Notes: generated from the sequence alone by a model not told the origin. A stretch of DNA of 64,000 nt from an uncultured Planctomycetota bacterium (GCA_963823665.1 CAWGMQ010000006.1:1312001-1376000), one strand, 5' to 3'; counted from the stretch's first letter, positions 71 through 63,904 are shown. Made by a program: numbers and translations.

Positions 71-688
71 ATGACGGGACGCCGCCGAGCCGTGAGGATG
101 ATCTCGTTCGTGATGCTGATCGGCGTCCTGCGGCCGGCTCTGCCCGCATCGGCGACGCAGAAGCGTGCGCCGGAGCGGGAACTCAGGGTCGCCGGTATCA
201 TGTTCGACTTCGACCGGAAGAACAACTGGATGACCGTCAAGGCCGACGGCGAGGATGAGCCCGTCAAGTATCTCATCGATCCCGAGAACCGGAAGCTGGC
301 CGAGCGGCTGCAAACCGTCTTCAATGCCAGTCGGGTGAAATTGACCTACAAGGCAGAGGGCGACTCGCGGCGATTGGTCAGCATTCAGAGGCAAATCCTC
401 AAGGAATCGGGGACAGTGACCGGCGTTGTCGTGAATGTTCACAATGACTTCTGGATAGAGGTGAAGCCCAAAAAGGGCGTCGCCGATGCGTTCGCTCCCG
501 GTGCCAACTACAACGACGAGGCTTTCATGGCGAAACTCAAGGCGCTGCAACCGGGCGACTCGGTGACAATTCGATTCACGACCGACTTCGAGCGGCATCG
601 CATCCTGGCACTCAGGAAGAATCTCGCCCAGGCCAAACCCAGTCCCAAGGCGAAGCAGCAAAGTGGTCCCGTCAAGGAGAAAGACTGA
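71..688 (+). CDS. hypothetical exported protein
   Basis: 205-aa ORF with a signal-peptide-like N-terminus and two short beta-rich segments; no family recognised. Confidence 0.65.
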   Translation: MTGRRRAVRMISFVMLIGVLRPALPASATQKRAPERELRVAGIMFDFDRKNNWMTVKADGEDEPVKYLIDPENRKLAERLQTVFNASRVKLTYKAEGDSRRLVSIQRQILKESGTVTGVVVNVHNDFWIEVKPKKGVADAFAPGANYNDEAFMAKLKALQPGDSVTIRFTTDFERHRILALRKNLAQAKPSPKAKQQSGPVKEKD

Positions 689-1097
689 GGACTGTCTCCG
701 ACCCGGTACAAAGCCTGTTGGCGGTACCCAGATCTTCCGACTGATGCGACCATGACCCCATGTGGCAGTCTGGGGGAATGATCACAGGGCGTCGAGGAGT
801 CCGGATTGTCGCGTCGAGGGCCAGTGGCTCCGGATCGAGGCGAGGAGCAGAGAACGGAAGAGCGGCATCATCGGATCGGTAGCCACGGCCATCTCAGTGC
901 TTTGGATCCGTCGTCGAGAGCCGAGAAGATCCACGTCTTGCCACGAAATCGGTCTTGCACGGTGTTTACCTTGACGAATCCATCGACTCGCTGGAGCGAG
1001 TGCGATCGGAGGTCTGCGTTGTTTGAGCTGGTGCCGAATGATAAGCCGCGATCCGGTTTGGGCATATGCGGACGCCACGGAAGGGTTCTGCGGGCCC

Positions 1098-1125
1098 TTG
1101 ACATATTCCCACACGGGAATATAAT
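1098..1125 (+). promoter_or_regulatory. sigma70 promoter overlapped by a palindromic ArsR-type operator
   Basis: TTGACA (1098-1103) N16 TATAAT (1120-1125); perfect inverted repeat ATATTCCC-acac-GGGAATAT (1103-1122); ATG at 1132. Confidence 0.8.
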
Positions 1126-1131
1126 TGGCAC

Positions 1132-1503
1132 ATGCCTCGAGCAGCGACGACGACTGATGTATTCAACGCGATTGCCGAGCCCAGGCGGCGGGAGATCATC
1201 GACGTGCTCGCGCGCGGTCAGGAGCACGCCGTGGGCGAGCTCGTCGCGAAACTCCAGATCGCGCAGCCCGCGGTGTCGAAGCACCTTGCGGTGCTTCGCA
1301 AGGTGGGCATCGTGTCGGTGAGCAAGCGCGGTCAGCTCCGATTGTATCGACTCAATTCGGCCGGGCTGAAGCCCGTGTACGAATGGGCAAAGAGTTTTGA
1401 GAAGCTCTGGGCCCATCAGCTTGACCGAATCAAGGAGCGTGCGGAGCAACGAATGCGGGAACGACTTGATTCCACAGATCAACCGAAACCCAAGAAAGGA
1501 TAG
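1132..1503 (+). CDS. ArsR/SmtB family transcriptional regulator
   Basis: DVFNAIAEPRRREII...VSKHLAVLRKVGIVSVSKRGQLRLYRL winged-HTH motif. Confidence 0.92.
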   Translation: MPRAATTTDVFNAIAEPRRREIIDVLARGQEHAVGELVAKLQIAQPAVSKHLAVLRKVGIVSVSKRGQLRLYRLNSAGLKPVYEWAKSFEKLWAHQLDRIKERAEQRMRERLDSTDQPKPKKG

Positions 1504-1505
1504 TC

Positions 1506-1958
1506 ATGACACTCGAAACGAAGACGCCCGATGCGGTTCAGGCATTTGACATTCGCAACGAGATCGAGATCGCGGCTTCGATCGAAGTAACGTTCCAGGC
1601 GGTGCTCGACCAGCTTGGACCGAGTGGCGAGATGCCCGATGGCACGCCGTTTCCGTTCAAGCTCGAGGCGTGGCCCGGCGGCCGCTGGTACCGCGACCTG
1701 GGGAACAACGCGGGGCACCTTTGGGGCCACGTGCAGGTAATCAAGCCGCCAACGCTGCTGGAGATCGTGGGTCCGATGCCCATGTCGTACCCGGCGATCA
1801 ATCACGTGCAGTATCGGTTGAAGGCGGAAGGAAGCGGGACGCGGCTGACTTTACACCACCGCGCCATGGGTCTGATCACGCCGGAGCATCGCGACGGGAT
1901 GCCCAAGGGCTTTGAATTCTGGCTGCAGGCCATCAAGAAGCGTGCGGAGCGAAAGTGA
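1506..1958 (+). CDS. SRPBCC/AHSA1 domain protein
   Basis: IEIAASIEVTF...LEAWPGGRWYRD...GTRLTLHH; typical partner of ArsR genes. Confidence 0.88.
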   Translation: MTLETKTPDAVQAFDIRNEIEIAASIEVTFQAVLDQLGPSGEMPDGTPFPFKLEAWPGGRWYRDLGNNAGHLWGHVQVIKPPTLLEIVGPMPMSYPAINHVQYRLKAEGSGTRLTLHHRAMGLITPEHRDGMPKGFEFWLQAIKKRAERK

Positions 1959-1983
1959 AACGCCAAATGCGCGACGAGTGTGT

Positions 1984-3565
1984 CTAGTCCGCTGGCCCGA
2001 ACACTGCCGCTAGCAGGCTGCTCATCGCAAACTGGATCACTTCTCGTTCCAGCTTCATGGCCTCCCGTTCGGCCGGCGGAGCCTTTTCCTCGCATGTGTA
2101 TTCCCACGCGACGAAGACCTTCAGCTCTTCTTTGTCGTCAATTCGCTTGGTTTCGACACCATACTTGAATTTGAGCCGTGCGAGCCGGCGAATTGCGAGC
2201 AAAACGTCGGCAGTTGCCGGAAGCCAAGCTGTTTTCTTGCCGCGAACGTACGTGCGCAAGAGATACGGAAGTGCAAAGTTCGGCTCACAAGCGATCGCAC
2301 GATCAAAGCTGGATAGTGCGCGGTCGAGGTCTTGCCGGCTTATCAGCGTCAGCACTCCAGCGCAGATCGGCGTGCGCACGAACGCGGCTGAAGTTGCCCC
2401 ATCCGATCGATGTCAGCGAGCGCCCCGGTCGTATCCCCCTGTCGCCATCGGACGAGCGAACGTCGGAAGTAGGCATCGGCCTCGGCTGGTCTGAGTTTGA
2501 CTGCTTGGTCGTGATCGGCAAGAGCGAGGCTTAATTCACTTTTCTTGACGTAGACATCAGCTCGGTATTGGTAGCCACGGTGTTGCTTCGGGTGCCGCGA
2601 GATCAGAGTCGTGTAGTCGGAGATCGCACGTTCAAGTTCGCCCAGCTCCATGTAACAACGAGCACGCTTCCAGAGGATCGTAGATGGGGTCGGAATCGAG
2701 CCGTAAAGGCCGGCGGCGCGACCGAGATCTCGAAGTGCGTCATTGTACGCATTCATCTGCATCGACGCGGCGGCGCGATAGATATATGCGTCGTTCCATT
2801 GCGCCCCATGCGCAATTGCAAATGAGAGCTCATCGATTGCACCTTTCGCGTCCCCTTCCATGCCAGCGATCACCCCGCGGAATGCGCGTGCTGCCGGTTC
2901 GGCCGGTGCGAGCTCGAGAACTTCGGATACCGCGTTCTTTGCATCTGCGACAGATTCTGTATTGCCGGTCAGAATTCGCTCTAGAAGACAACTCGCCCGC
3001 TGTAACAGGACGTCGACGTTGTCGGGCTCGCGAGCGACAACATACGCGAGATCGTTGAGCGCGTCGTCATAGCGGTCCAGAGCCTGGAATACGCGGCGCG
3101 CATGCGCCGTGCGTCGCGGCTATCGGGATCGCACGTGAGCGCACTTTCGCATTCGGCCAGAGCCAACGTGTTCGCCCGGGCCCGGAGATGCGCACTTGCT
3201 CGCTGCATGTGTTCGAAGGCGCGACGGTCGGCGTCAACAAGCTCCCGGACGCGGTTTGAGCGAGCAGGTGTCGGTGCGTCAAAAATCAATTCGGCGCCGT
3301 CAACATCCAAAAAACGGGTACGTTGGGTAGGTCGTGGATCGTCCAGGAAGCCCGGGGGTGATCCACCGACGAGGTCCGGAATTACCGTTTCGCCGACTTG
3401 CGGTTTGCTGGGTTGGAAGTCCGGAGGCGCAGGTACAAGATCCTGTCCGTGCGCGTTCGAGGCAGCCGCATTGCTGAAGATCGCTGCCGCTAGCACCGCC
3501 TGTCGGACGACGGATACCGCGGACTTCAGGGAGCACCATTCCCAACGAGACACAAACTGTGCCAT
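1984..3565 (-). CDS. TPR-repeat protein (split by two frameshifts, ~3075 and ~2390)
   Basis: TPR motifs in successive ORFs 2981-3565, 2349-2873 and 1984-2379 (e.g. AISDYTTLISRHP, ALADHDQAVKLRP). Confidence 0.75.
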
Positions 3566-7246: not shown

Positions 7247-8042
7247 CGATTGCACCCGCGCGAGTTGAGCCCAGAGCCGAGCGGCCATCGACCGGCGTTG
7301 CCGAACTGGCTACATGTGTGGCTAGCCGGTGGGGTTCGACGATGGAAACCGAGCGAGCGAAGCGGCTGGCGGAATTTGTCGCTAGGGTTGGTGCGAACAT
7401 CCAAGGCGATGAGAAGGAAAGCCAGCCACGGATCGCTTGAACCCGCCAAAACGCTGGGTGTCTTTGCGTCAGGAAAAGCTCGAGAAAGGAGGAAGTGCCT
7501 CGAAACACAGAAACCTTTCATCGCGACCCTGCGGGTTAACGAATCCCGCCCGGCAGAGCCTGGCCGGCAGCCGGAAGCAAGTCTTGCGTGGGGAGGGGTG
7601 ACCCTCACTGCGAAGCGTAGACAGCGAGTCTCCATGCCATGCTATCGAGCCCCGAAATACTCATCGTGGGAGCCTCCGTTGTAGACACAAGCGGGGGCCG
7701 TGTCGACACGCCGCAATGGCCTGGCGTGTTCGGTCCTGCCGGGGTCCAAGAACATGGCGCAGGGACGCGAGGGTTGCTCGGGAACCTGAGAGCCCCATCC
7801 GTCTCCACTGACATTTCCGGCTCGGGATCCGGAATACCAACTCCCCGGCCCACGACCTCGCGTCGGGTCGCTGGGAGCGAACAGGACGCAAGGGTGGTAT
7901 CGCCACACGAAGGCAACGAAGTGCGGCGAAAGGGGCGGATGGGAGTCGGAGCGTCTCGTAGTACCGTTGAAGCCGGGGAACCACTCCGAGGGACCCGGTG
8001 GAGGGAAGGAGACGCCATGTCACACAACCGTTGGAGGGAAAC

Positions 8043-9395
8043 ATGGCGGGTGCATCGGAACCCGTGGACGTGTCCACGAAACAACAACGGATAGCGGAAC
8101 TCGCTCGGCGAAGCCCGGAGATGGGATTCACATCCCTGGGGCACTTCATCGACCTCGATTGGCTGCTCACAGCTTACTACCGGACCCGCCAAGACGGGGC
8201 GGTGGGCGTAGACGGACAAGATGGCGAGGCCTACGCAGCGAACCTGGTCCCGAACCTACGGTCGCTGCTGGAACGAGCCAAGTCCGGTACGTACCACGCA
8301 CCGCCTGTGCGGCGAGTGCATATCCCCAAGGCAGGCTCAGCGACCGAAACCCGGCCACTGGGAATCCCGACCTTCGAGGATAAAGTGCTCCAGCGTGCTG
8401 TCGTGATGGTTCTGGAGGCGATATACGAGCAGGACTTCAAGAACTGCTCGCATGGCTTCCGGCCCGAGCGATCGGCACACACTGCGTTAGAGAGCCTGTG
8501 GCAACAGACGATGAACATGAAGGGCGGATGGGTAGTGGATGTGGACATTCGTAAGTTCTTTGACACGATTGACCACGGCCATCTACGCGACTTCCTCAAG
8601 CGTCGGGTGCGAGACGGAGTGCTGCTCCGGCTCATCGGCAAATGGCTCAATGCGGGCGTCTTCGAGAACGGGTGCGTTACGCACCCCGAAATGGGGTCGC
8701 CACAAGGGGGTGTGATCAGCCCGATCCTTTCGAATATCTTCCTGCACTACGTGCTGGACGAGTGGTTCGAGCGGGAGGTTCAGCCTCGGATGATGGGCAG
8801 ATCGTTCTTGATCCGCTATGCGGACGACTTCGTCATGGTCTTCTCATGCGAGTCCGACGCACGGCGTGTGATGAATGTGTTGCCCAAACGCTTTGAGAAG
8901 TACGGCTTGACCATCCACCCGGACAAGACGCGGCTGGTGCCGTTCGAGCGGCCATCGGACCGTCCCAAACCGGAAGGCAGACCCACACGAACTCCACCAG
9001 GGACTTTCGACCTGCTGGCGTTCACCCATTACTGGGGTCGCTCCCGGCAGGGTCGCTGGGTGGTGAAGCGCAAGACGTCCAAAAGTCGATTTCGCCGCAG
9101 CCTGCGAACGTTGGCGGATTGGTGTCGCAAAAATCGCCATCAACCGCTCAAGGTGCAGCACCGGATACTAGGTCAGAAACTGCTAGGCCACTATGCCTAC
9201 TACGGAATCACCGGCAACTCCAAAATGTTGTCACGGTTTCGCAGTGGTGCCACCTGGCTCTGGCAGCACTGGCTGTCGCGCCGCGGGCGCGGCCGTCGGA
9301 TGACGTGGGATCGGTTCGCTCGTTTCCTGAAGCATAAACCGCTTCCGGCAGCGATCGCGATCCACTCGGTATGCCGTCTCGTAGCGAACAAGTGA
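8043..9395 (+). CDS. ltrA: group II intron reverse transcriptase/maturase, no HNH domain
   Basis: GVDG, RPLGIPTFEDK, GSPQGGVISP, RYADDF, maturase domain X; GGAGGG RBS before ATG 8043. Confidence 0.93.
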   Translation: MAGASEPVDVSTKQQRIAELARRSPEMGFTSLGHFIDLDWLLTAYYRTRQDGAVGVDGQDGEAYAANLVPNLRSLLERAKSGTYHAPPVRRVHIPKAGSATETRPLGIPTFEDKVLQRAVVMVLEAIYEQDFKNCSHGFRPERSAHTALESLWQQTMNMKGGWVVDVDIRKFFDTIDHGHLRDFLKRRVRDGVLLRLIGKWLNAGVFENGCVTHPEMGSPQGGVISPILSNIFLHYVLDEWFEREVQPRMMGRSFLIRYADDFVMVFSCESDARRVMNVLPKRFEKYGLTIHPDKTRLVPFERPSDRPKPEGRPTRTPPGTFDLLAFTHYWGRSRQGRWVVKRKTSKSRFRRSLRTLADWCRKNRHQPLKVQHRILGQKLLGHYAYYGITGNSKMLSRFRSGATWLWQHWLSRRGRGRRMTWDRFARFLKHKPLPAAIAIHSVCRLVANK

Positions 9396-9442
9396 CATGA
9401 CGAGCCGGGTGCCTGAATTGGGCAAGCCCGGATCTGTGGGAG

Positions 9443-11862
9443 TCGCGAAACGAAGCTGCGGATGAGTCTGTTATGACTGGATTTGCAACCAGGACATAAC
9501 CCGATGTACGACCACCGGAACCCTACCAGGACGTGCGGCCGGAGCAATCCGACCGTGCGAAGCTCTTGGGACAACGTAACCTCACCTTCGGGTGGTTGGA
9601 TATCCCGTGAGGGAATCCGGCGACTGCGAACGCCAATGCGGTCGGGGGCCAGGGGTGGATGGCATGGCTAATCCAGGTGAACTGCCGATAAACGTCGTGA
9701 GATCCAACAAGCCAAAGGCGCTGAGAGGCTTGAACCAAAAAGGTACGTGGCCAGGTACAGTGGGATTTCCCATCCCCTGTCGTCGTCATCCGAGCCACCG
9801 GCGGAGAGGCAGAGCCTAAACCATCCGTGATTCATCCGTGGAACGTGGTAAGCCCGTCGCCCTCCCTTCGGGGTAGGACCGTCGTAAGGCGTCGCCGATG
9901 GGGCGGCGGGTGGAGGATGAGGGAGCAAGCCAATGCCGTTCGGTAGTCGATCGGATAGAGGGTGAGTCCTCCCACGGACGACATCCCCTCACCGCGAAAG
10001 CGGTGCCGACTTCCCTCAGGTGTTCCGTCACGAGAGAACCTTGGCCAACCGACTCAGGGAGACAAGCAGATATGTCGGCGGCAGAAATGCTTGCTGGTGC
10101 GGCTCCCGAGCTTACGCCCGACTGGCACTCCATCGAATGGAAGAAAGTCTGGCGCACAGTCCGTCGGCTCCAGGCGCGTATCGTGAAGGCTGTTGCGGAG
10201 GGCAGATGGAATAAGGTCAAGGCTCTGGTTTATCTGCTCACGCACTCGTTCAGTGGCCGGGCCCTGGCCATTTTGCGAGTCATCAGTAATTCGGGTGCGA
10301 AGACTCCCGGTGTGGACGGAGTTCTCTGGAACACACCGGAAGCCAAGTCGGCTGCTTTCAGCACTCTGCGTCGGCACGGTTACCAACCGCAACCGCTCCG
10401 CCGGGTGTACATTCCCAAAAGCAACGGCAAGCGACGTCCTCTCGGAATTCCCACCATGTCAGATCGAGCCATGCAGGCATTATACTTGCTAGGCCTCGAT
10501 CCCATTGCGGAATCTCGAGCCGACGGCCATTCCTATGGCTTTCGGCTGGAACGTCGTTGTGCCGACGCCCTGGAACAATCTCATATTGTCTTGGGTAATC
10601 GGAGCGGTCCAGCATGGATTCTCGAAGGGGACATCAAAGCTTGCTTTGATCGCATCAGTCATGACTGGCTCTTGACGCACGTCCCCATGGACCGGCAGTT
10701 GCTCGGGCAATGGCTGAAAGTGGGTTTCCTGGAGAAGCACGCCTGGTTCGCCACCACGGAAGGAACACCTCAAGGCGGGATCATTTCACCCGTCCTGGCG
10801 AATTGGACTCTGGATGGACTGCAACGGCTGTTGGCGGAACAGTTCGCCGAGAAGCACGGGCGACAACGGAAGTTTAAAGTCCACCTGGTCCGCTATGCGG
10901 ATGACTTCTTGATCACGGGCATCTCAAAGGAACTCCTCCGTGACCAAGTGCAACCTCTCGTGGCTCATTTCTTGAAGGAACGCGGCTTGGAACTTTCCCA
11001 CGAGAAAACCCAGATCACGCATGTGGAGGATGGCTTCGATTTCTTGGGGCAGAATGTGCGACGCTATCGCTGCGGCAAGGTGTTCACCAAGCCGTCCTTG
11101 CGAAACGTGAAGACGTTCTTGAACAAGATACAGGAAACGATCGACGGCTCGGGCAGCCTAACGGCAGGAGAGATGATCTGGCGTTTGAATCAGCAGATCA
11201 AGGGCTGGACCATGTACCACCGTTACGCGGCGAGCAAGCGCACTTTTACGTACGTGGATCACCGGATTTTCCAGAAATTGTGGCGTTGGTGTCGACGACG
11301 GCACCAGAACAAAGGCCGGAGGTGGATCAAGGAGAAATACTTCCAGCAAGACGGTTACCGCCACTGGGTCTTCACCGGTACGCTGTTTGACCAGAAAGGC
11401 CAAGGCCGGCCGATCCAGTTGATGGAAGCAGCCAAAGTGAAGATCATTCGTTATGTGAAGATCCGGAGCGACGTGAATCCCTACGATCCGAAGTGGGAAC
11501 TGTACCTGGAAGCACGACTGGGTTGGCAACTGAGCCAAACGCTGGCAGGTCGGGGTCGGATCGAATACTTATGGAAGGAACAAGAGGGACGATGCGTGGT
11601 CTGTGGTCAACCGCTGCGGATCGCAGAGGAAGACTTGCATCTCCACCATCGCATCTGGCGCAGCCGGGGCGGTTCTGGCACAGCCGACAACCTGGAGTTG
11701 TTGCATGCCAACTGTCATCGGCAGATCCATGTCCAAGAACGACTGACGAAAGCGGCCGCGTCCTGCGAGGGGCGTTCGTGAAGGCTTGAGCTGCATGAAG
11801 GGAAACTTTCACGTGCAGTTCTGAGGGGAGGGGGTGGCGGTAACGTCACCTCCTTACCCGGC
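9443..11862 (+). mobile_element. group II intron B (inner; chloroplast-like class, HNH-bearing) nested in intron A (twintron)
   Basis: 5' TCGCG; DV GAGCTGCATGAAGGGAAACTTTCACGTGCAGTTC 11788-11821; DVI ending TTACCCGGC; removing it restores GTGGGAG|CCTTGGGGGA-GCGA-TCCCCCAAGG of intron A; EBS1 9767-9772 and EBS2 9700-9705 pair with the 5' flank. Confidence 0.9.
10072..11781 (+). CDS. ltrA: group II intron RT/maturase with C-terminal HNH endonuclease
   Basis: WHSIEW...[11 protein letters not shown] (RVT_N), [16 protein letters not shown], CxxC...HLHH...NL..LH..CH HNH. Confidence 0.95.
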
Positions 11863-12113
11863 CCTTGGGGGAGCGATCCCCCAAGGCGACCCGGCGAAAC
11901 CCGTGGCGATCCTCGAAGCGGTCGACGCAATGAGCGTCGAACAAATCGGCCCGATGTCGGCGGAGACAGTTGAAGCGGGGTTGGATCACAAGCGATTCAT
12001 TGAATCACCAGGCGGATGGTCCGTCGGACCAAGCGCTTTTTTTGGTATGATGGCGGTCGCAGTAGTTATCCAACCAGCACCTTCGACGCGTCCCTCTCTC
12101 AGGACCTTCAACG

Positions 12114-15360: not shown

Positions 15361-16092
15361 TTGCGTCAGGAAAGCTCGAGAAAGGAGGAAGTGCCTCGAA
15401 ACACAGAAACCTTTCATCGCGACCCTGCGGGTTAACGAATCCCGCCCGGCAGAGCCTGGCCGGCAGCCGGAAGCAAGTCTTGCGTGGGGAGGGGTGACCC
15501 TCACTGCGAAGCGTAGACAGCGAGTCTCCATGCCATGCTATCGAGCCCCGAAATACTCATCGTGGGAGCCTCCGTTGTAGACACAAGCGGGGGCCGTGTC
15601 GACACGCCGCAATGGCCTGGCGTGTTCGGTCCTGCCGGGGTCCAAGAACATGGCGCAGGGACGCGAGGGTTGCTCGGGAACCTGAGAGCCCCATCCGTCT
15701 CCACTGACATTTCCGGCTCGGGAACCGGAATACCAACTCCCCGGCCCACGACCCCGCGTCGGGTCGCTGGGAGCGAACAAGACGCAAGGGTGGTATCGCC
15801 AAACGAAGGCAACGAAGTGCGGCGAAATGGGCGGACGGGAGTCGGAGTGCTCCGTAGTAGCAGTGAAGCGGGGGAATGGGCCCTCCCAGACCCTGTGGAG
15901 CGAAGGGGGTACCGTGTCGCGGACTGGAAGCCGGAACCACGCCGAGGGCATTGGACCTCAGAGCGCGTCACCGCGAGGCGACCAGATCGTGTGAGGGACA
16001 GCGACGCCGCGACATGACGAGCCGGATGCCTTAATTGGGCACGTCCGGATCAGTGGGAGCCCTGGCGGAGCGATCCGCCAGGGCGACCCGGC
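15361..16092 (+). mobile_element. ORF-less group II intron C (732 nt)
   Basis: TTGCG start after GTGTCT; EBS1 AGACAC 15579-15584; DI-II nearly identical to intron A; short DIV (GTGTCGCGG...CCGCGACAT); DV ~16019-16051; DVI ending GACCCGGC with A at -7 (16086). Confidence 0.88.
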
Positions 16093-19725: not shown

Positions 19726-20301
19726 TCACAGGCGGTGCGCGAAAGCTCGCAAGCGAGCAACCGTCTTAGCAAGCCCAACCGCTTCCAAGGTCGCAAGGAA
19801 TTCCTCGACAGTCCTCGGCGGGTTTTTCAGGCCCTGTCTTTGCAGCCGGGCAGCCTCACCGAACTCGTCCACGGCCGCGTCAAGTAGTTCGGAGAATATT
19901 TCGTCGGGATGCCGGACATCCACGCCGTACCGTCCAAGTGCTTCAGGCGGGAAGTCCGAGATGTTGAAGGTAATGATCAACTCAGCCTCCCCGTGGATCG
20001 CGGCGGCCAATACGTGGCGATCATCCGGATCGGGCAGAGTCAACGACGGAACCAACGCCGCGTAGCCCGTCACGAGGCAGTCTCGAACGGCACCGTCCAT
20101 GAGGGATCGGGTCCGCTCCAGGCGCTCTCGACTGAGTTTCGGGTTGTTTTTCAGGACGTTCCGCATCCACTCATCATGAATCTCGTCTGTCCACCGTGCC
20201 TGGATCAAGCTGGCCTGAGCCAGACGAACAATGAGGTCGCGTAGCGGGGCGGAGTAGAGGACGCAGGCGTCGATGATCGCCGTCGAAGGCGTGTCCATCA
20301 A
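19726..20301 (-). CDS. PIN domain protein (VapC-like toxin)
   Basis: AIIDACVLY...DEW...PDPDDRHVLAAAI...IITFNISDFP. Confidence 0.92.
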   Translation of the reverse strand: MMDTPSTAIIDACVLYSAPLRDLIVRLAQASLIQARWTDEIHDEWMRNVLKNNPKLSRERLERTRSLMDGAVRDCLVTGYAALVPSLTLPDPDDRHVLAAAIHGEAELIITFNISDFPPEALGRYGVDVRHPDEIFSELLDAAVDEFGEAARLQRQGLKNPPRTVEEFLATLEAVGLAKTVARLRAFAHRL

Positions 20302-22179: not shown

Positions 22180-23103
22180 TTAACGCTTCGTTGTGGTCTT
22201 GCCTCCTCCCTTTCCGCTGGCGTTGGAGCCAGATGGCGCCTTGGCTGGTTTTGAATCTGGTGGGTTCTCTTCCGACCCGGAGGGCGCTTTGGCTGGTTTT
22301 GAATTCGAACCACCATGCTCAGAGCCGGAGGGCGCTTTGGCTGGTTTTGAATCTTCAAACCCGTTTCCGCCCGAAGCCGATTGGTGCCGCAGGCGGTAAC
22401 TTCGGCCCTCCAATCGCACGAGCTCGGCATGATGCAGGAATCGATCCAAGATCGCCGTGGCACTCGGCACATCCCCGAGAAGCTTTCCCCAATCCTCGAG
22501 CGGACGGTTCGATGTCATCATCGTTGACCGTGTCTCATACCGCCGCATCACGACCTCGAAGAGACATTCACCGGAACGCCTCGGCAATTGCTTCATTCCC
22601 ATGTCGTCGATGATCAACAACTCGGGCTTCAGGTACATCGTCAGCATCTTGTCCTCCTGCCCCAACACCTGATCATGCAGGAAGTCCCGGACCAGGTCGA
22701 AGACCGAGCGGTAAAGAACCGTGTAACCGGCCTTGACGGCTTGATACCCGATCGCTTGTACGAGATGGCTCTTTCCGAGGCCGGGCGGTCCCAGCCAGAG
22801 CACGTCGCGCCCTTCGCGGAGGAACCGACAGCTCGCCAAGTCGTACACCTGCTTGCGGGGGATCGACGGGTTGAACGACCAGTCGAAGTCTTCCAACGAC
22901 TTCCGCTCGCGAAACTCAGCCGCTTTGAACCGTCGCTGGAATTGGCGATCGGCTCGCACCGCCAGCTCGTCTTGAAGGATCAGCTCAAGGAACTCGCTGT
23001 GGCTGAGGCCGTGGCCAGCGGCCTCCTGTAGGCGAATCTCCAGGCTCTCCAAGAGTCCGGAGAGCCGTAGTTGCCTCAATACATTTCTCAGTGGTTCATT
23101 CAT
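22180..23103 (-). CDS. istB: IS21 helper ATPase with repetitive C-terminal extension
   Basis: GPPGLGKSHL Walker A, LLIIDDMG Walker B, TSNRP, AILDRFLHH. Confidence 0.95.
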   Translation of the reverse strand: MNEPLRNVLRQLRLSGLLESLEIRLQEAAGHGLSHSEFLELILQDELAVRADRQFQRRFKAAEFRERKSLEDFDWSFNPSIPRKQVYDLASCRFLREGRDVLWLGPPGLGKSHLVQAIGYQAVKAGYTVLYRSVFDLVRDFLHDQVLGQEDKMLTMYLKPELLIIDDMGMKQLPRRSGECLFEVVMRRYETRSTMMTSNRPLEDWGKLLGDVPSATAILDRFLHHAELVRLEGRSYRLRHQSASGGNGFEDSKPAKAPSGSEHGGSNSKPAKAPSGSEENPPDSKPAKAPSGSNASGKGGGKTTTKR

Positions 23104-23393
23104 GGAGAAAACTCCTGGTGTGGTGTGGAAAATGTCGTGCTCGATCTCGATCGCCGATCACAGAATCAAAATGTCATCTCCGTCCCTCCCGCCTTCGCCA
23201 TCGCCTCGCCCTCACTTGAACTGGGCGAGGCGATGGCGAAGGTGGGAGGGAGCATCCCTCTTGCCGAGCCGGAGCTGAGCCCCGTCCCCTCTTTTTCGCC
23301 GGAAACTCGGTAGCCACTGCAACGTTGTTTGCACCGTGACCGGCGGAGGTCTGCCAAGTCGATTCAGGCACTCCCGCTCAAAGCAACTCTGAT

Positions 23394-24974
23394 TCATGAG
23401 TTGTTCCCCTCGTATCGAGATTGGAATGCGTCGCGGACAAACTGGCCATATTCACTCATTGGTCGGATCATAGGATGCTCGTTCATGAATGGCAGCAACT
23501 CTTGCTTGGGTCCCTGGCGCTTCAGGAGCGCACGGATTGTCCGGAGGCGATACTCGCCGTAACCGTGCGCAATTTCGCAAGCGTGATCGATTGCCGAGGC
23601 GAGATGCCGGCTGGAAAGGTTCAAAAGGCCGATCAACACTCGCACTCCCTCGACTCCGCGGGCTCGGATCATCGCCTCTGCCCAAGCGGTGCTCTTGGGT
23701 CCCAGCCGAGTGGTCACTCTGCGCAGAAGCCAGGCTGCCCCTTTCTCGACCCCGCTGATCTTATTGGGGTGAATCAGTTCAGGCGGTGTGCTGAAACGAC
23801 CTGGTTCCTTCCTGAGATGCACGGCGATCTTCTCCATCCGATCGTTGTAGATCGACACCAGGCGGCTGTCCCAGCGCACCCAGACGTCCCGGTCCCGGTA
23901 TTCCGGCGGCACCGCATAGTAGGCCCGCTTGACCTCAACATGGCCATCGCGGTGGACAGTGCGGCGGCCCTCGTGGAACGACGGGAATAGACCCAATGGC
24001 AACGGTACCAGTGCCTCGCGCTCGACCTCGGCGAAATGCTTGCCGACCTGGCGACGGGTGGTGCCATGGATCCGGGTGTCAGCGACGGTCAGCTCCCAGT
24101 TCAGTAGGAAAGCATTCTGCTCCTCCAGGCTGGGGAATCGCCGTGCCTTGAGAGCGTTGCTCTGGACGTAGTCGACGCTTTTTTCGACCTTTCCCTTGTG
24201 CCGAGGTGTCCGGGGTCGCGTGGGCCAGAAGACAAAGCCGTAGTGCTCTCCGAAGGAGCGGACCTTGGGATTGAGCTCGGGATCAAACCAGTCGGCCTTC
24301 GTCACGGCGGCCTTCAGGTTATCCAGAACCAACCGTCTCGGTACGCCACCGAAGTGGCGAAAGGCACTTTCAATGCAGCGAAGGAATTCATCGGTGGTCT
24401 GGCGATAGACGGCCTCGGAGTAGGCCTTGCGAGAGTGGGACAGCACGATGCGGAAGACATGGGTTCTGCGGCGCTTGCCGTCGGTTGTGTAAACCGGAGC
24501 ACCAGTGCCGAAGTCGACCTGGGCCTCCTCCCCTGGCTCACACTCAAGGCGCCGGAAGGGAAGCTCTTGTACCGGCTCGAGGCGGCGAACAAAGCGACGG
24601 ACGGTGTAGTAGCTCCCCTGGAAGCCGTGTTCGGACGAGAGATCCTGGTAAATGCGTTGGGCGCTCAGGCCCTGGTTAAGCTTGGACTGAATGATGTCTC
24701 GCCAAGGCTCGCAATCGCTGAGTCGACCGCGAGCTTGGCTGCCGCGGTCGCTGGCCGAAGCGAGTGTCGGGACAGCCGCGCTTGCTGCAATTTCAGGGCC
24801 GCTCGAGCCGGAGGGCGCAATGGCTGGTTTTGGCGCCTCTCTGGCCTGCTTGAGGTAGCGAGCGACCGTCTCACGATTGATGTCCAGCTCGATGGCGATT
24901 TGGCGCTGGGACCATCCCCTGCGATGCAGGGACAAGATAGCGTCTATCATGGCCACTTTGAGGCAATTCGACAT
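23394..24974 (-). CDS. istA: IS21 DDE transposase
   Basis: N-terminal HTH, PGEEAQVDFG, LVLDNLKAAV, KGKVEKSV. Confidence 0.95.
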   Translation of the reverse strand: MSNCLKVAMIDAILSLHRRGWSQRQIAIELDINRETVARYLKQAREAPKPAIAPSGSSGPEIAASAAVPTLASASDRGSQARGRLSDCEPWRDIIQSKLNQGLSAQRIYQDLSSEHGFQGSYYTVRRFVRRLEPVQELPFRRLECEPGEEAQVDFGTGAPVYTTDGKRRRTHVFRIVLSHSRKAYSEAVYRQTTDEFLRCIESAFRHFGGVPRRLVLDNLKAAVTKADWFDPELNPKVRSFGEHYGFVFWPTRPRTPRHKGKVEKSVDYVQSNALKARRFPSLEEQNAFLLNWELTVADTRIHGTTRRQVGKHFAEVEREALVPLPLGLFPSFHEGRRTVHRDGHVEVKRAYYAVPPEYRDRDVWVRWDSRLVSIYNDRMEKIAVHLRKEPGRFSTPPELIHPNKISGVEKGAAWLLRRVTTRLGPKSTAWAEAMIRARGVEGVRVLIGLLNLSSRHLASAIDHACEIAHGYGEYRLRTIRALLKRQGPKQELLPFMNEHPMIRPMSEYGQFVRDAFQSRYEGNNS

Positions 24975-25835
24975 GGTGCGGCTCCAGGAAAGGGGTCTCC
25001 CGAAAGCCTACATGTCGAATCCGCGTCTCCTCATTAGTGGCTGGTTTTGAAGCGCCCCATGGTGGCTGGTTTTGAGCGCCCGCTGTCATGCTACAAATGA
25101 GGCTTCACTATGAGCGATCAATCCGCTGGCGGACTTTCGTCTGTGATTTTTCCTTGCTGGAATCAGCTCCCCACGGCGCCTGCGCCGTGCGCACATACAG
25201 AATGAATTCTGTCGATTGATCGATATTATCGCTGGAATCGGGAATCTTTGTGAAGATATCCCGGTCGACGGCGCGTCCAGTCTGCAAAGTCGTCGCATAC
25301 TGTAGATGAGCGGGTGCGCGGCGCCGCGGCGCCATTTTGCCGCGCGCGGTCAAAAGGCTGACGGCACCTCTGTCGTGTTTCGGAGGCACCGCCAAAGTCC
25401 CGAGGGATTCCTTAACTCGGGATCGGGTTCTCGGAGTCGGAACGATATATGAGAGTCAGATCAAGATCTGAATTTGGATTTCACCGCCGCCAGTTTACAC
25501 TAGTGTACGGATGCTGGACGACCCCCTAGATATTGCCACTTATTGCCATTTTTTTCGAGGAATGCGGCGATTGCTTTGGGTGGTGTGGCTGCTCTGTAAG
25601 TGCAATAAGCGTAATCAAATCGGAATAGCGCGAGGCGTTCTTACTCGATGGCGAAATTCTCATGGCAAAGGTCAGCAAGAATTGCCATTCTCAATCGCGG
25701 GTGTTGTTCACTATGTTTTTGGGCTGTATTTTCACTGCAGTCGGAGGGAGATTCTCGGTGCCTGGTGGGGATGGAATTCCCCTCGCGCAATCCCCCCTCC
25801 GCTGCGTTCGGGGGCTGTGGGGCTGGGGCTCGCGC

Positions 25836-27399
25836 CTTTGTCCTTACCATCATTTTCTGGTGGTCATAGGTGCGCTTCCCCGGCCTTTTCCCGGCTTTTC
25901 TCGCTTCGCACCTGGTAATATCAAGCCAAGCCACACGCTGAGGTGGGGGGGAGGGATCGCGTTTCAACCGCCGGAGCCTCGGATGGACGCCTTTCTTTCA
26001 GATGCGCAGACTTGGGCCATGACCCAATTCGCCACCACTGATCTTCATGACGAACGCCGTACCAAACGACTCGTTCTGTTGGCAACGCAGATCGCCGCAG
26101 ATCCGTCCGGGAGTTTTCCTCAGCAAACCGAATCCTGGAATGATCTGAGGGCCGCATACAATTTCTTCGATTGTGAGGACGTCACCTTTCAAGCGATCGC
26201 CAGTCACCATTGGGAGCTTACCAAGAAGACAGCAGGTGAGCGTCAATTGATCATCGCAGACACGACCGAAATCGATTACGGGCCGTGCCGACAGGTCACA
26301 GGTCTTTCGCCGGTTGGTTCGGGTATCGGACAAGGCTTTCACCTTCACTCGGGTTTGATGGTTTCCCCCGAAGACGACCGGGTTCACGGCTTGGCCGGAC
26401 AACTGATCTATCATCGTCAGCGCGTTCGTAAGGGGGAGACGCGGACCGAACGGTTGCAGCGTGACGATCGCGAATCACAGATCTGGGGTGATCTTGTCAT
26501 CCAAATGGGATCCCCGCCGTCGGGAACCTCCTGGATTCACGTAGTTGATCGTGGCGCCGACGACTTTGAGTTTTTCTATCACTGCCAGCAGACAGAAACC
26601 GAATGGGTGGCGCGAGCCAAGAGCCTGATCCGGATCATTATCACGCCGGAGAGCGGGGAAACGCCGCTGAAAGCCTACTTAGGGACCCTGCCGCGGGCTG
26701 GATGTTACACGCTCAATCTGCGGGCTCGCCCCAAAGCACCGGCTCGGACGGCCAAGCTGGTGGTCGCCATCGGGGCCTTACGGATGCCGACGCCGAAACT
26801 CAAAAGCCCATTTCTGAAGCAGGTCAAGCCCGCGGCGATCCCCATGTGGGTCGTCTGGGTGCGCGAGGTAGATGCTCCCGACGGAGTGGAGGCGATCGAG
26901 TGGGTGCTTTACACTTCTTTGCTGGTGGAGGATTTTGAAGATGCTATGGCGATCGTGGGGTACTACGGGAAGAGGTGGCTAATCGAGGAGTGGCACAAGG
27001 TCCTGAAAACAGGCTTTCAGGTAGAACGTCGCCAGCTCAAGACGTGCGATCGTCTCGAAGCCATGATGGGATTGATGTCTGTGGAAGCACTGCGGTTGTT
27101 CCAGTTGAAGGGAATGGCGCGGACAGCTCCCGAGCAGCCTGCGACCGAGGTGGTACCGCCCAAATACGTGATGATGCTGAAGGTGGTGCGCAGATTGACG
27201 CCCACGACAATATTAACTGCGGGAGGATTTTTTCGGGAGTTGGCCAAGCTGGGAGGGTTCCTGGGCCGCCGCCACGATGGGGAGCCAGGTTGGATGACGA
27301 TCTGGCGGGGTTGGGACAAGCTGCAGATCATGATCCGGGCGCCGAGGCTATCATCGACGTATCTTCATCGGTATGATGAAGATGATGGTAAGGACAAAG
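25836..27399 (+). mobile_element. IS4 family (IS50/Tn5-like) insertion sequence
   Basis: IRs CTTTGTCCTTACCATCAT / ATGATGGTAAGGACAAAG; 8-bp direct repeat GCTCGCGC (25828-25835, 27400-27407). Confidence 0.9.
25983..27376 (+). CDS. IS4 family transposase (frameshift near the 3' end, ~27338)
   Basis: WAMTQF..DL.D.RRTKRL, IADTTE, VVDRGAD, Y..RWLIEEWHKVLKTG, AKLGGFLGR..DGEPG. Confidence 0.92.
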
Positions 27400-27624
27400 G
27401 CTCGCGCCCCAGGCTTTATGATGTCGCCCCGGTTCGGGGCTGGGGGAGAACGCGGCGGGATTATCCACAGTTGCGCCGCGTCCGGCCATTTCGTTGCGGG
27501 CCGCGAATGAAGATCGATCAGTCGTTTGCGCTCGGTTCTTCCGGAGGAAACATGCACGATTCTACACGGATTAACTGTTTTTCGATCATTGATTGATTTT
27601 GGGATGATCAAGTGGCACAGGTAG

Positions 27625-57207: not shown

Positions 57208-59955
57208 CTACTTCCCCTCCAAACCCCGATTCCTGATATCCCGCGCCTTCTTCACCAACCCGGTGAATTCCTTCCTGTACCCCGACTCATCCCCCTCACT
57301 CACCTGCCCCGCAATCTCCAACACCCCATCAAACGTAATCGTCCCCTTATACTTCGAATCTCGCAGCAACATCCCGAACCCCGCAACCGCCGCCGCAAAC
57401 TTCAGGTCCCCTGAAGCCCGGCCAAAATCAACCCCTTCATCCACAACCGGGTACACCAAAGGCACGCTCTTATCCTCATTCGGCTTCTTGTACCGCAGAT
57501 TGACGACGAACGAGTTCGCTCGCCTGGGTTCCTTGCCGCTCTCGGTTTTCTTCGCGGCATCCTTCAAGGCGACCTCTCGCCCCCGTTCGCCCACCTTCGC
57601 CGGCACCAGCTCGTAAAGCGCCGTCACGTGATGCCCCGCCCCGATCTCCCCCGCATCCTTGGCATCATTATCGAAGTCTTCGTTCGCCAGCGCCCGATTT
57701 TCATAACCGATCAGCCGATATTCGGCCACTTGCGCCGGATTGAAGTCGACCTGGATCTTCACGTCCTTCGCGACCGTGACCAGCGTCGAGCCCATCTCCT
57801 TCACGAGCACCCGATAAGCCTCGTGCGGCGAGTCGATATACGCGTAGTGGCCATTGCCCTTGTCGGCAAGCTGCTCCAGCTTGGCATCCTTGATGTTTCC
57901 CATACCGAAGCCGAGCACGCTCAGAAAAACGCCCGATTTCGCCTTTTCAGTGATCAGCTCCATGAGCTTCTTGTCATCGGTGATCCCGACGTTGAAATCA
58001 CCGTCGGTGGCCAGGATGACCCGATTGGTCCCATTCTTGATGAAGTTCTTGACGGCGACGTCATAAGCGAGCTGAATGCCCTCGCCGCCATTCGTCGAGC
58101 CGCCGGCCTTCAGCCGGTCGATCGCCGTCATGATCTCGGCCTTCTTCTGGCAAGACGTCGACGGCAGAACGAGCCCCGCTGCTCCCAGGTAGACAACGAT
58201 CGCCACGCGATCATTTTCGCCGAGCTGCTCGACCATTCTCTGCAAGCCCCACTGCACCAGCTTTAGCTTGTCTGGCTCGTCCATCGACCCCGAAACATCC
58301 ACCAGGAACACGAGATTGCTGGCCGGTCGGTTGGCCTGATCAATCGGTTTGGCGGCAATGCCGATGCGCGCCAGTCGGTGCGCAGCATTCCACGGGCACC
58401 CGCTCACCTCGACGTGCACCGCAAACGGCTGATCGCTCGCATCGGCCGCCGGCGAATCGTGATAAGGGAAGTAGTTGAGCATCTCTTCAATGCGAACGGC
58501 ATCACGCGGCGGCAGCGATTCCTGGTTCAAGAACCGCCGGATCATCACGTAGCTCGCCGTATCGACGTCAATCGAGAACGTCGACTGCAGCGCCTTGGCG
58601 GTGAGCAAGAACGCGTTCTCGACGATCGGCGCAAACGCCTCTGCATCGGCGACGACTTCTTGCTCGATCCTCGCTTCGACTTGCTGCTCGGGTGCATTCT
58701 GGGCGAGATTCTGTTGCACATCCTTGACTTCCTTGTCGGTCGGTTTCGGCAACGCGGCATTGCCTTCGTTTGCCGGCGGAGTGAACCCCAGTTGAGTCTT
58801 CTGGCCAGCCCGCGCGGGATCACCGCCGTTTTGCATTTGCCCGGCAGGTGCCTTCGCGAGCGTCAGGTCCTCTCGAAGCTCCGCACCAGGCGCCCGAGCG
58901 GCGGGTGCCGCGGCCGCCGGGGCTGCCTCGGTTGCCTTTCCGGTTGCTCCGGCCGATAGCGGGCTCGCGCCTTGCTTCGCTTCTCCCGCCAATCGCTCAT
59001 CAGTCGGCGCCGCGGTCGGCGTCGGACGTGACGGAGCGCCTTGCTTGGCCTTGGCATCGAGCGGCGCTTCGAGGTCGTTCAATTCCGCCAGGCGCTTTCG
59101 CCGGCGGAGAGCAAGCGAGTCTGCCCCCGGTGCGGCCGCAGCCGGGTACACTGAACGCTCGGCGGGCGCCGAAGCTCCCGTCACCACGGTAGCGCCTGGT
59201 GCCGGCGGCATCGCCGGACCAGAACCGCCCGCTCCGGTCTGGCTCACTTTCCCGAGTTTCCTGGCGACCAGCGCGCGCTGCTCGCCACGGTCAGTTGCTC
59301 CGCCCATGCCGCCGCGCCGACCCTCGGGGGCAATCGCCGTCACATCCGCCTCCTCTCCGTATGCATCGACAAACCCTTCTCCCGCCGGCTTGTTCGCGGC
59401 GCCCTGGCTCACTCCGAGATCTCGAGACACGCCCTCGCCCGTCTCGGTGGAGGCGCGTAAGGCCACCGCCGCCGGCGCCGCAGCCGCCGTCTTTTCCGAA
59501 ATACGATTCCGGACACGCTTCGCCTGCGGGGCGGGCGCGGTCGATCGTTCGCCCGGTTCTGCGAGGGCAATCCGATCCAATTCTCGGCGCTGCTTCACAT
59601 CCACACGAACAAACGGCACGACCGCCAGCCCCACAAGCGCCAGCACCGCCGCCGCGATCAAATTCATCCGGATTGCGGGCCGTCCCCACCACCGCCGTCG
59701 CGGCGCATCCGAATTCGCCACGATCTCGCCGGCAACATGATGGTTGTTGATCCCGGCCTTCTCCACCGGATGATGCGCTCGACTCTCCGCTTGAAGCTGT
59801 TCGGAGAGCCACCGCGTCGTCAACCGGATCTCTTCGACCGCCTCGCGACAGTCGGCCGAATCGATGAGATTTGCCTCGACCACCGCGCGCTCGGTGGGAT
59901 CGAGCTCGCCAAGCACGAATGCCGTCAGCCGGGGATCGTTGGGGTCAATGTTCAT
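57208..59955 (-). CDS. anti-sigma-like N-terminus + TM + linker + YfbK-type VWA domain (copy 1)
   Basis: [58 protein letters not shown]. Confidence 0.92.
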   Translation of the reverse strand: MNIDPNDPRLTAFVLGELDPTERAVVEANLIDSADCREAVEEIRLTTRWLSEQLQAESRAHHPVEKAGINNHHVAGEIVANSDAPRRRWWGRPAIRMNLIAAAVLALVGLAVVPFVRVDVKQRRELDRIALAEPGERSTAPAPQAKRVRNRISEKTAAAAPAAVALRASTETGEGVSRDLGVSQGAANKPAGEGFVDAYGEEADVTAIAPEGRRGGMGGATDRGEQRALVARKLGKVSQTGAGGSGPAMPPAPGATVVTGASAPAERSVYPAAAAPGADSLALRRRKRLAELNDLEAPLDAKAKQGAPSRPTPTAAPTDERLAGEAKQGASPLSAGATGKATEAAPAAAAPAARAPGAELREDLTLAKAPAGQMQNGGDPARAGQKTQLGFTPPANEGNAALPKPTDKEVKDVQQNLAQNAPEQQVEARIEQEVVADAEAFAPIVENAFLLTAKALQSTFSIDVDTASYVMIRRFLNQESLPPRDAVRIEEMLNYFPYHDSPAADASDQPFAVHVEVSGCPWNAAHRLARIGIAAKPIDQANRPASNLVFLVDVSGSMDEPDKLKLVQWGLQRMVEQLGENDRVAIVVYLGAAGLVLPSTSCQKKAEIMTAIDRLKAGGSTNGGEGIQLAYDVAVKNFIKNGTNRVILATDGDFNVGITDDKKLMELITEKAKSGVFLSVLGFGMGNIKDAKLEQLADKGNGHYAYIDSPHEAYRVLVKEMGSTLVTVAKDVKIQVDFNPAQVAEYRLIGYENRALANEDFDNDAKDAGEIGAGHHVTALYELVPAKVGERGREVALKDAAKKTESGKEPRRANSFVVNLRYKKPNEDKSVPLVYPVVDEGVDFGRASGDLKFAAAVAGFGMLLRDSKYKGTITFDGVLEIAGQVSEGDESGYRKEFTGLVKKARDIRNRGLEGK

Positions 59956-60504
59956 GATAGGCTCTCCTCTCGATCGGCACCGGACCTGGCAGCTTCGCCG
60001 GCAAAGAGTTGAACACGAAGCGCCTTGACCCCGGCATGAATCAAGTAGCCCACGTTGGACACGCTATGTCCGCTGATCCGGCTGATTTCCTGGTAGGAAA
60101 ACCCGTTCTGAAACTTGAGGCGAATGACCTCGCGCTGATTGACGGGCAAGACCTCGAGCAAGTCGAGCACCCGCGACGCCAGGTCTCGCCTGACCGCGGC
60201 CTCGAGTGGTCCCGGATCCGGGCTGAGGCAGCGCTGCACCTGCTCTTCGTGCAACTGAGTCATCCGATTCTCCTTCCGCAGCACATCGAGCGCCCGGTTG
60301 CGGCAGACAGTGAACAGCCACTCGGCCAGGTGCCCGTCGATCGATTCAAACTCGGAGGCGCACAGCTTGAGGAACGTATCCTGCACCACATCTCGCGCAG
60401 CCTCGGCATCTCGCAGCAGGCGCGGCATACAACAAGAGCGGCCCCTCAAACCGGGCCACCGCATCCCGTACCCATGACTGCTGCTCGCCCATTACTTGCA
60501 ACAT
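59952..60504 (-). CDS. ECF sigma factor (copy 1; frameshift ~60422)
   Basis: [30 protein letters not shown]...SYQEIS. Confidence 0.9.
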
Positions 60505-60542
60505 CAGCCCACTCGAAAGGAATTCCAGTTCCGTCAACCCAT

Positions 60543-63314: not shown

Positions 63315-63866
63315 GATAGGCTCTCCTCTCGATCGGCACCGGACCTGGCAGCTTCGCCGGCAAAGAGTTGAACACGAAGCGCCTTGACCCCGGTATGAAT
63401 CAAGTAGCCCACGTTGGACACGCTATGTCCGCTGATCCGGCTGATTTCCTGGTAGGAAAACCCGTTCTGAAACTTGAGGCGAATGACCTCGCGCTGATTG
63501 ACGGGCAAGACCTCGAGCAAGTCGAGCACCCTGGACGCCAGGTCTCGCCTGACCGCGGCCTCGAGTGGTCCCGGGTCCGGGCTGAGGCAGCGCTGCACCT
63601 GCTCCTCGTGCAACTGAGTCATCCGATTCTCCTTCCGCAGCACATCGAGCGCCCGGTTCCGGCAAACGGTGAACAGCCACTCGGCCAGGTGCCCGTCGAT
63701 CGATGCAAACTCGGAGGCGCATAGTTTCAAAAACGTATCCTGCACCACATCTCGCGCAGCCTCAGCATCTCGCAGCAAGCTGCGCGGCGTACAACAAGAG
63801 CGGCCCCTCAAACCGGGCCACCGCATCGCGTACCCATGACTGCTGCTCGCCCGTTACTTGCGACAT
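63311..63866 (-). CDS. ECF sigma factor (copy 2; frameshift ~63781)
   Basis: near-identical to 59952-60504. Confidence 0.9.
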
Positions 63867-63904
63867 CAGCCCGCCCGAAAGGAATTCCAGTTCCGTTCAT
63901 TCTA

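Follow-up and report, generated by a model that had tools for sequence, protein, structure and literature searches.

A mobile group II intron of soil bacteria appears, from the sequences of its copies, to insert repeatedly beside the catalytic centre of other introns. The 64,000-nt stretch analysed, here called the window (GCA_963823665.1 CAWGMQ010000006.1:1312001-1376000, from an uncultured Planctomycetota bacterium), holds a host intron (A) interrupted by a second, complete intron (B), together with an ORF-less relative of the host, C, that serves as an internal control (table 1). We consider it likely that B is an active retroelement homing to the DV/DVI region of class E/F-like introns lacking an endonuclease domain, with B probably splicing first. 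That B represents a site-specific, DV/DVI-targeting lineage is very probable.

Table 1. Coordinates of the nested introns, their pairing elements and the control intron in the window.
Feature	Position	Strand	Basis or remark
IBS1 of host A, in a short near-palindromic genomic repeat targeted by A and C	7458..7463	+	Complementary to 7683-7688
5′ portion of host intron A, from DI through DV to the 5′ strand of the basal DVI helix	7464..9442	+	Rfam D1D4-6 at 7540-7754, 138 bits
Predicted EBS1 of A	7683..7688	+	Perfect complement of 7458-7463
Intron-encoded RT/maturase of A, 450 aa, YADD at 259, without endonuclease domain	8043..9395	+	
DV of A, with AGC triad, 5-nt loop and GGAUC at the end of its 3′ strand	9402..9434	+	Fold, sequence
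IBS2 for B: 3′ strand of A's DV and first linker base	9430..9435	+	6/6 pairing with 9700-9705
IBS1 for B: 5′ strand of A's basal DVI helix	9437..9442	+	6/6 pairing with 9767-9772, including one G-U at -1
Invading intron B, 2420 nt, CL/IIB1-like, RT and HNH	9443..11862	+	Seven identical copies; Rfam
EBS2 of B	9700..9705	+	In register with EBS2 of relatives
EBS1 of B, in ID3-type stem-loop	9767..9772	+	Hairpin 9755-9785, z -3.2; in register with relatives
IEP of B, 569 aa, RT, maturase and HNH, YADD at 275	10072..11781	+	RVT_N, RVT_1, GIIM, HNH
B's own DV (11788-11821) and DVI, branch A 11856	11788..11862	+	RF00029, 63.4 bits; fold z -7.0
Rest of A's DVI, with the distal hairpin (11863-11886) intact, the branch A (11889) and the 3′ end	11863..11895	+	86% match to C's DVI end; fold
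Intron C, 732 nt, related to A but without ORF; DV/DVI not invaded, with A in place of T at -8	15361..16092	+	Internal control

The coordinates that a preliminary description of this locus gave for A, B and the DV and DVI domains hold. That description placed B 8 nt past A's DV inside A's DVI, a position that we confirm and refine: B follows the 5′ strand of the basal DVI helix and precedes the distal DVI hairpin, which is whole on B's 3′ side, and DV itself is unsplit. Removal of B in silico leaves a DV-DVI of 74 nt, equal in length to that of intact C (16019-16092), and the two fold alike, as had been proposed (-47.7 kcal/mol for B-free A vs. -48.3 kcal/mol for C, the latter folded with one extra base). 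The arrangement is a twintron, one complete intron nested in another that is restored when the inner one is taken out. The RT of A was also correctly described as intact, its frame being whole in the window copy, and a domain search found RVT_1 as its sole domain. Sequence comparison gives a 95% match between A and C. The lack of an endonuclease domain in A's IEP agrees with class E/F. Introns of that class have a 5-nt DV loop and measure 450-700 nt without an ORF according to the available text of PMC3753933; A has such a loop, and C at 732 nt lies slightly above the range. We call A and C class E/F-like by resemblance, not by a tree; a search of A's protein family gave 7999 matches with generic names only and no class label.

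Six RT-bearing copies of A are present in the source genome along with 14 ORF-less C-like copies (the one in the window and 13 at other loci), the latter presumably mobilised in trans by A's RT. The 5′ flank containing IBS1 is the same in all six RT-bearing copies and in 13 of the 14 ORF-less ones, the remaining one differing at -1. Empty copies of the near-palindromic insertion repeat (window 7456-7463 and 11896-11903) number 58 in the genome, against none for the control, and cluster near intron loci. No gene-sized frame runs across A's empty site, where the longest stop-free stretch is 126 codons. Because the hosts lie in a short non-coding repeat without a gene frame, the nesting concerns introns and not a cell gene, and an effect on cell genes is not evident. 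The window also contains a PIN-domain gene (19726-20301), an IS21-type istA/istB pair and a Tn5/IS4-type transposase (22180-27596), and duplicated long ORFs (57208-63896).

The invader has the features expected of a group II intron, with Rfam matches to D1D4-7 (9500-9649) and RF00029 (11786-11862), an AGC triad in DV, a bulged A in DVI 7 nt from the end, and an IEP in DIV carrying RT, maturase and endonuclease domains. At the sequence level its ORF, triad, branch A and EBS pairing are all intact, which sets it apart from the inner introns of 'zombie' twintrons. We also considered a circularly permuted group II intron and rejected it; B has its own DV/DVI downstream, and the DV upstream belongs to A. 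All seven copies have the ends UCGCG...GC, without a G1-U2 start, and so depart from the canonical GUGYG...AY; since close relatives start GUGCG or UUGCG, we regard these ends as a derived variant. First and penultimate bases tend to covary in B, A and relatives (U-start with a GC end, G-start with an AC end), L175 and L217 being exceptions. The best PDB match of the IEP, far above all others, is 6me0_C (E 7e-181, residues 3-556), which we take to be T. elongatus T.el4h of class CL/IIB1. By this resemblance, and not by a class-labelled tree, B is CL/IIB1-like.

Seven full copies of B occur in the genome with 0 differences over 2420 nt, plus one 3′ fragment. Each full copy sits at DV+8 and is followed by the rest of a DVI, and a DVI tail likewise follows the fragment. 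Their hosts are four RT-bearing A copies, one ORF-less C-like variant and two members of a third family. The base preceding B is G in four copies and A in three, and the 3′ flanks differ, so that B's boundaries are fixed independently. Seven identical copies imply recent mobility. The invaded A copies fall into two SNP haplotypes, and a single gap separates the window's A from an empty copy, as one would expect had B homed independently into hosts that were already dispersed. At two loci (L002, L003) an A-type DVI tail stands behind a non-A body, a sign either of recombination through B or of mixing in the assembly. Single-base indels, either real or sequencing errors, shorten the RT in four of the six A copies (L024-L027). 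Other group II introns of the genome (L017-L021) have different DV ends, and none carries B.

The preliminary description had B's EBS1 and EBS2 pairing with two stretches just upstream of its insertion site, and both pairings stand (6/6 each, with one G-U). The 13-nt target has 11 matches in the genome; eight are intron DV/DVI sites, seven of them occupied, and none of the three elsewhere is occupied. A pattern search returned 25 matches, 24 of which are host DV/DVI sites, and B occupies 7/8 host sites with a full EBS2 and EBS1 match vs. 0/16 other host sites; the Fisher p of 2.3e-5 is overstated because 13 of those 16 empties are near-identical C copies. One perfect target site in this genome is thus found empty. 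Introns of other lineages confirm the EBS register, since they pair at their own sites, each with its own sequence: among 13 with both EBS read, EBS1 pairs at 5/6 or better in ten and EBS2 in nine, after four of 26 rows without a readable 5′ end or EBS were dropped, and with L110 and L095 pairing poorly. All nine DV-targeting rows share one EBS2 and nearly one EBS1; L078 has a C-A mismatch at -1. Of the predicted recurrent insertion with covarying EBS, the recurrence was borne out, whereas covariation is weak within the lineage, because EBS and target are both nearly constant there, and is visible only against lineages with other targets.

The suggestion that B uses a site the host cannot easily mutate proved overstated. 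Across 23 distinct host sites the target varies at -8, -6, -2 and -1, and an A copy that is intact and empty carries a change at -11; conservation is circular at the positions of the search pattern and informative only at -11, -8, -6, -2 and -1. The A at -8 carried by C is suggestive of host escape and no stronger than that; it is not a proven barrier, because the EBS2 base facing -8 is mismatched in 8/13 other-lineage relatives and L216 sits behind an A at -8. A second signal concerns B's own class. EBS2 of B reads an A at -11 of the host DV, where CL-type DVs have T in 21 of the 21 read, and no copy of B in this genome lies inside another B. Together these suggest self-avoidance, B seeming to avoid its own class through the base at -11.

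Relatives were collected by protein, 5′ RNA and tail pattern, sets that overlap and are not summed. A protein search with the B IEP gave 66 loci. L078, with 98% IEP identity in a record titled Actinomycetota (binning unchecked), is at DV+8, and DVI tails follow the 3′ ends of L125, L104 and L135. Most relatives at 81-89%, largely from Planctomycetota MAGs, differ from B in EBS sequence and in insertion site. Two relatives at 53% in records titled Acidobacteriota (L127, L128) have B's EBS2 with a different EBS1 and a repeated target that is not a DV. In metagenomes, a locus with 96% DNA identity (L175) lies at DV+8 of a fourth host family; it is the only B-like case among seven matches to a DVI marker, the other six being introns with other EBS or targets or fragments, and the marker was therefore rejected as a lineage-specific tag.

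A search of 121 genomes of the order with B's 5′ RNA gave matches that extend to the 5′ end in G461, G438, G405, G403, G406, G443 and G487. G461 carries a second intron of this type, B2. Of its 5′ ends that can be read, 6/7 are at DV+8 (L235 lacking one G), and of the readable 3′ ends 10/12 are followed by a DVI tail; off-target copies there are L237 and L244, and a pattern search of G461 located five host DVs, every one of them occupied. In G405 an ORF-less B-like intron (L217) sits at DV+8 of an ORF-less host, the sole invader found in a genome where 4/14 host sites are perfect yet empty; one such site is present in G438. L222 follows a DV-like hairpin and was counted at DV+8, L219 is an off-target fragment (it and L237 being insertions at look-alike sites), and L218 and L220 belong to a sister type whose target is different, L218 having ~83% identical 5′ RNA and other EBS. 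A deleted ORF-less B-like intron in G438 (L216:2990-3760), with an inverted DVI tail and a palindromic end of DV in front of it, is ambiguous, as is L221 in G443. The combination of intron end and DVI tail occurs in 7/121 genomes (25 matches, control 1); five new B-like matches that we examined are 5′-truncated relics or interrupted, and L327 is not B-like. The claim that B recurrently invades the DV/DVI of other introns is thus upheld by all seven copies here and by G461, L078, L175 and L217, while homologs at unrelated sites, named beforehand as evidence against it, are relatives with other EBS in addition to the off-target L237, L244 and L219. The lineage is rare, its EBS2-region pattern occurring in two of 401 genomes of the class (G000 and G405; G461 is outside that sample). 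A loose junction pattern matched 143 of 401 phylum genomes and was discarded, since the matches listed resemble GC-rich noise; the junction pattern had no match in viral contigs, and a junction query of plasmids returned 292 records, none covering 80% of the query.

Comparison of B with B2 indicates that B is a mosaic, joining a DV/DVI-targeting domain I (about nt 1-450) to an IEP of a different lineage. Nucleotides 1-450 are 87% identical to B2 and 62-64% identical to L079, L082 and L093, and the ORF reverses this relationship (62% to B2, 87-88% to the other three); the IEPs of B and B2 are 58% identical. Four DV-targeting introns form one clade in the domain I tree (99/99), a grouping that the ORF tree lacks. 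The presence of the same domain I on two divergent proteins argues that specificity travels with domain I.

In group II retrohoming, a lariat-IEP particle reverse-splices into DNA, the endonuclease cuts the opposite strand and the RNA is then copied by the RT. B's lariat-IEP particle would accordingly reverse-splice into host intron DNA at the DV/DVI site, its HNH domain would cleave the other strand and its RT would copy the B RNA, and B would ride on the host's transcript. The hosts are multi-copy and located in intergenic repeats, and B would therefore gain many harmless landing sites. In precursor RNA, EBS1 and EBS2 of B are predicted to pair with strands that A needs for DV and DVI; splicing of B first would restore A, and A's lariat could then spread without B and make new empty targets such as L024. 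The EBS-IBS duplexes of B are computed at about -7 kcal/mol each vs. -5.3 kcal/mol for A's basal DVI helix alone. Because these duplexes would occupy strands of A's DV and of its weak basal helix, B probably splices first, and we lean toward this order as the main pathway. Two RNA runs (X9, X11) yielded only contigs of relatives and no splice product. A joint in X11 from 9442 to a different DVI tail was rejected as a splice product and is possibly an empty DNA copy; cofolding of the two halves of A's DVI gave alternative mispairing and was not used.

The preliminary description went further in stating that A cannot branch until B has spliced, which is firmer than these sequences allow. Since the distal DVI hairpin is whole, DVI might fold around B, and there may be no obligate order at all: the basal helix would close around B as a three-way junction, A would splice or hydrolyse its 5′ site with B inside, and A::B would move as a unit. 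B's position between the basal strand and a whole hairpin fits this, as do the invaded A pairs L023/L025 and L026/L027, whose members hardly differ from each other. For 'zombie' twintrons, the available text of PMC7049729 describes splicing as a composite, and that of PMC3753933 reports that group IIE introns hydrolyse in vitro and that DI and DV suffice for hydrolysis. Even so, a single weak basal helix would have to compete with two stronger duplexes, B is intact where zombie inner introns are not, and if A::B moved as a unit, the presence of one and the same B in three host types would be unexplained, all of which leaves this a doubtful alternative. It is unlikely, too, that the host is only a landing pad, most invasions disabling an A that then decays without a productive cascade. 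Frameshifted RTs in three of the four invaded A copies (284, 375 and 375 aa), many B-like 3′ ends with DVI tails that represent 5′-truncated relics, and the full occupancy of the hosts in G461 would be consistent with such decay, but one of the two empty A copies is frameshifted as well, the single-base indels may be sequencing errors, the window's A keeps an intact RT, and A's RNA would be regained if B spliced out precisely.

Two further explanations question the specificity or the existence of the nest. B's EBS may simply happen to match a frequent repeat, the DV/DVI position being a recent accident, and the insertions at look-alike sites and the sister intron with other EBS are the kind of observation this would predict. 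It is nonetheless improbable, because the same EBS2 and site persist while domain I differs by 13% and the proteins by 42%, the 13-mer is unoccupied at its three places outside introns, no fewer than four host families have been entered, and the present majority of EBS2-matching relatives are at DV/DVI. An assembly artefact from collapsed repeats could account for the two chimeric flank combinations, and the 3′ junction is bridged by just 7 bases, too few to count as independent bridging. A contig from DNA run X2, possibly related to the source material, spans 9369-9682 with 0 differences, so that of the two junctions for which read support had been proposed as a check, 9442/9443 is bridged and 11862/11863 is not. 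Since the base-exact site with a restored DVI also recurs in other assemblies and in a metagenome contig, we regard an artefact as extremely improbable, and active homing of B to DV/DVI remains our preferred explanation.

Several further nests came to light among these loci. In G461, an RT intron without endonuclease domain (L331:4427-6415 and L332; Rfam D1D4-4, class C-like by the resemblance of its 3′ end) occurs with two 5′ ends of identical sequence, each placed a single base ahead of the DV end of a CL-type intron, and L331 is a three-level nest consisting of an A-like host, B2 in its DVI and the third intron in B2's DV. In G406, a 621-codon RT intron lies mid-DV of a B-like intron (L328, ~186-2624, reverse strand), and a relative is found in G461 (L338). 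Another intron lies at the YADD codons of L104 (3216-5160), where the order of an A-like 5′ half, the YADD-site intron, a B-like 3′ half and a DVI tail looks as if a deletion had occurred between two such copies; the B2 copies L240-L243 in G461 break at the position matching this insertion. A joint reading that we put forward tentatively, and would not call probable, is that group II introns offer, at their catalytic end, a general ecological niche. A domain I module reading DV/DVI would have been swapped between proteins, would separate host from own class by one DV base and would place an obligatory splicing gate on host mobility, while at least two further unrelated introns of the same bacterial family would enter the DV of CL-type introns, including the invader, giving three-level parasite chains.

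Such hosts are easily missed, as RF00029 at its cut-off leaves the DV/DVI of A and C uncalled and two survey pipelines drop or miss twintrons by their own statement (PMC4028801; PMC8919778, available text). The literature compared, which was accessible in part and also included PMC3534033, PMC12584367 and PMC3552965, yielded no mobile bacterial lineage aimed at DV/DVI, though coverage is incomplete and the intron database or supplements may list one. The preliminary description's statement that it knew of no such lineage stands to that extent, but a nest in DV was already known from Euglena. The psbF group II twintron of that organism resembles ours in having the inner intron in the catalytic end (DV) of the outer; B is multi-copy, whereas the available text of PMC8393795 presents psbF as a single chloroplast insertion in a protein gene and does not describe it as a mobile, multi-copy, EBS-aimed lineage. 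In Eutreptiella an inner intron lies 3 nt from the outer 3′ splice site (PMC5572947, available text), and in Porphyridium intron-in-intron insertion is reported in DIV (PMC4476101, likewise).

The closest solved relative of B's IEP, the maturase RT of PDB 6me0, has a different target site, and B's domain I comes from another lineage. Nested introns of Methanosarcina acetivorans were reportedly the subject of work by Dai and Zimmerly in 2003. These nests resemble ours in repeated site-specific intron homing, in intergenic locations, balanced by recombinational deletion (Zimmerly and Semper 2015, PMC4424553, available text), and similar nests and deletions occur here in L104 and L331; the Methanosarcina homing is into intron ORFs, however, and that of B is into ribozyme 3′ domains, leaving the host ORF untouched. 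Trichodesmium Tr.e.I7/I8 is likewise a bacterial group II twintron in an RNA domain, for which sequential splicing was shown, but its inner intron is in domain I and its host interrupts a protein gene (PMC4649490, available text), unlike A and B. A further parallel is TeI3-in-TeI4 of Thermosynechococcus elongatus, as described in the available text of Mohr et al. (2010, PMC2882425). It too is a case of bacterial homing to a fixed site in a group II intron, with identical inner copies in diverged outer copies that were read as independent insertions. TeI3 inserts in DIV of TeI4 between two start codons, in contrast to B's site in DVI beside DV, and is an ORF-less relative using the outer IEP, where B is autonomous and of another class than its host.

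Intron-into-intron homing is thus already known for DIV and the RT ORF, and B adds homing to the DV/DVI of the ribozyme. This extends intron-on-intron parasitism from expendable DIV and ORF sites to the ribozyme catalytic end, where function constrains host escape, and offers a compact natural system for ordered splicing, for competition between EBS-IBS pairing and DV/DVI folding, and for target specificity that moves with domain I.
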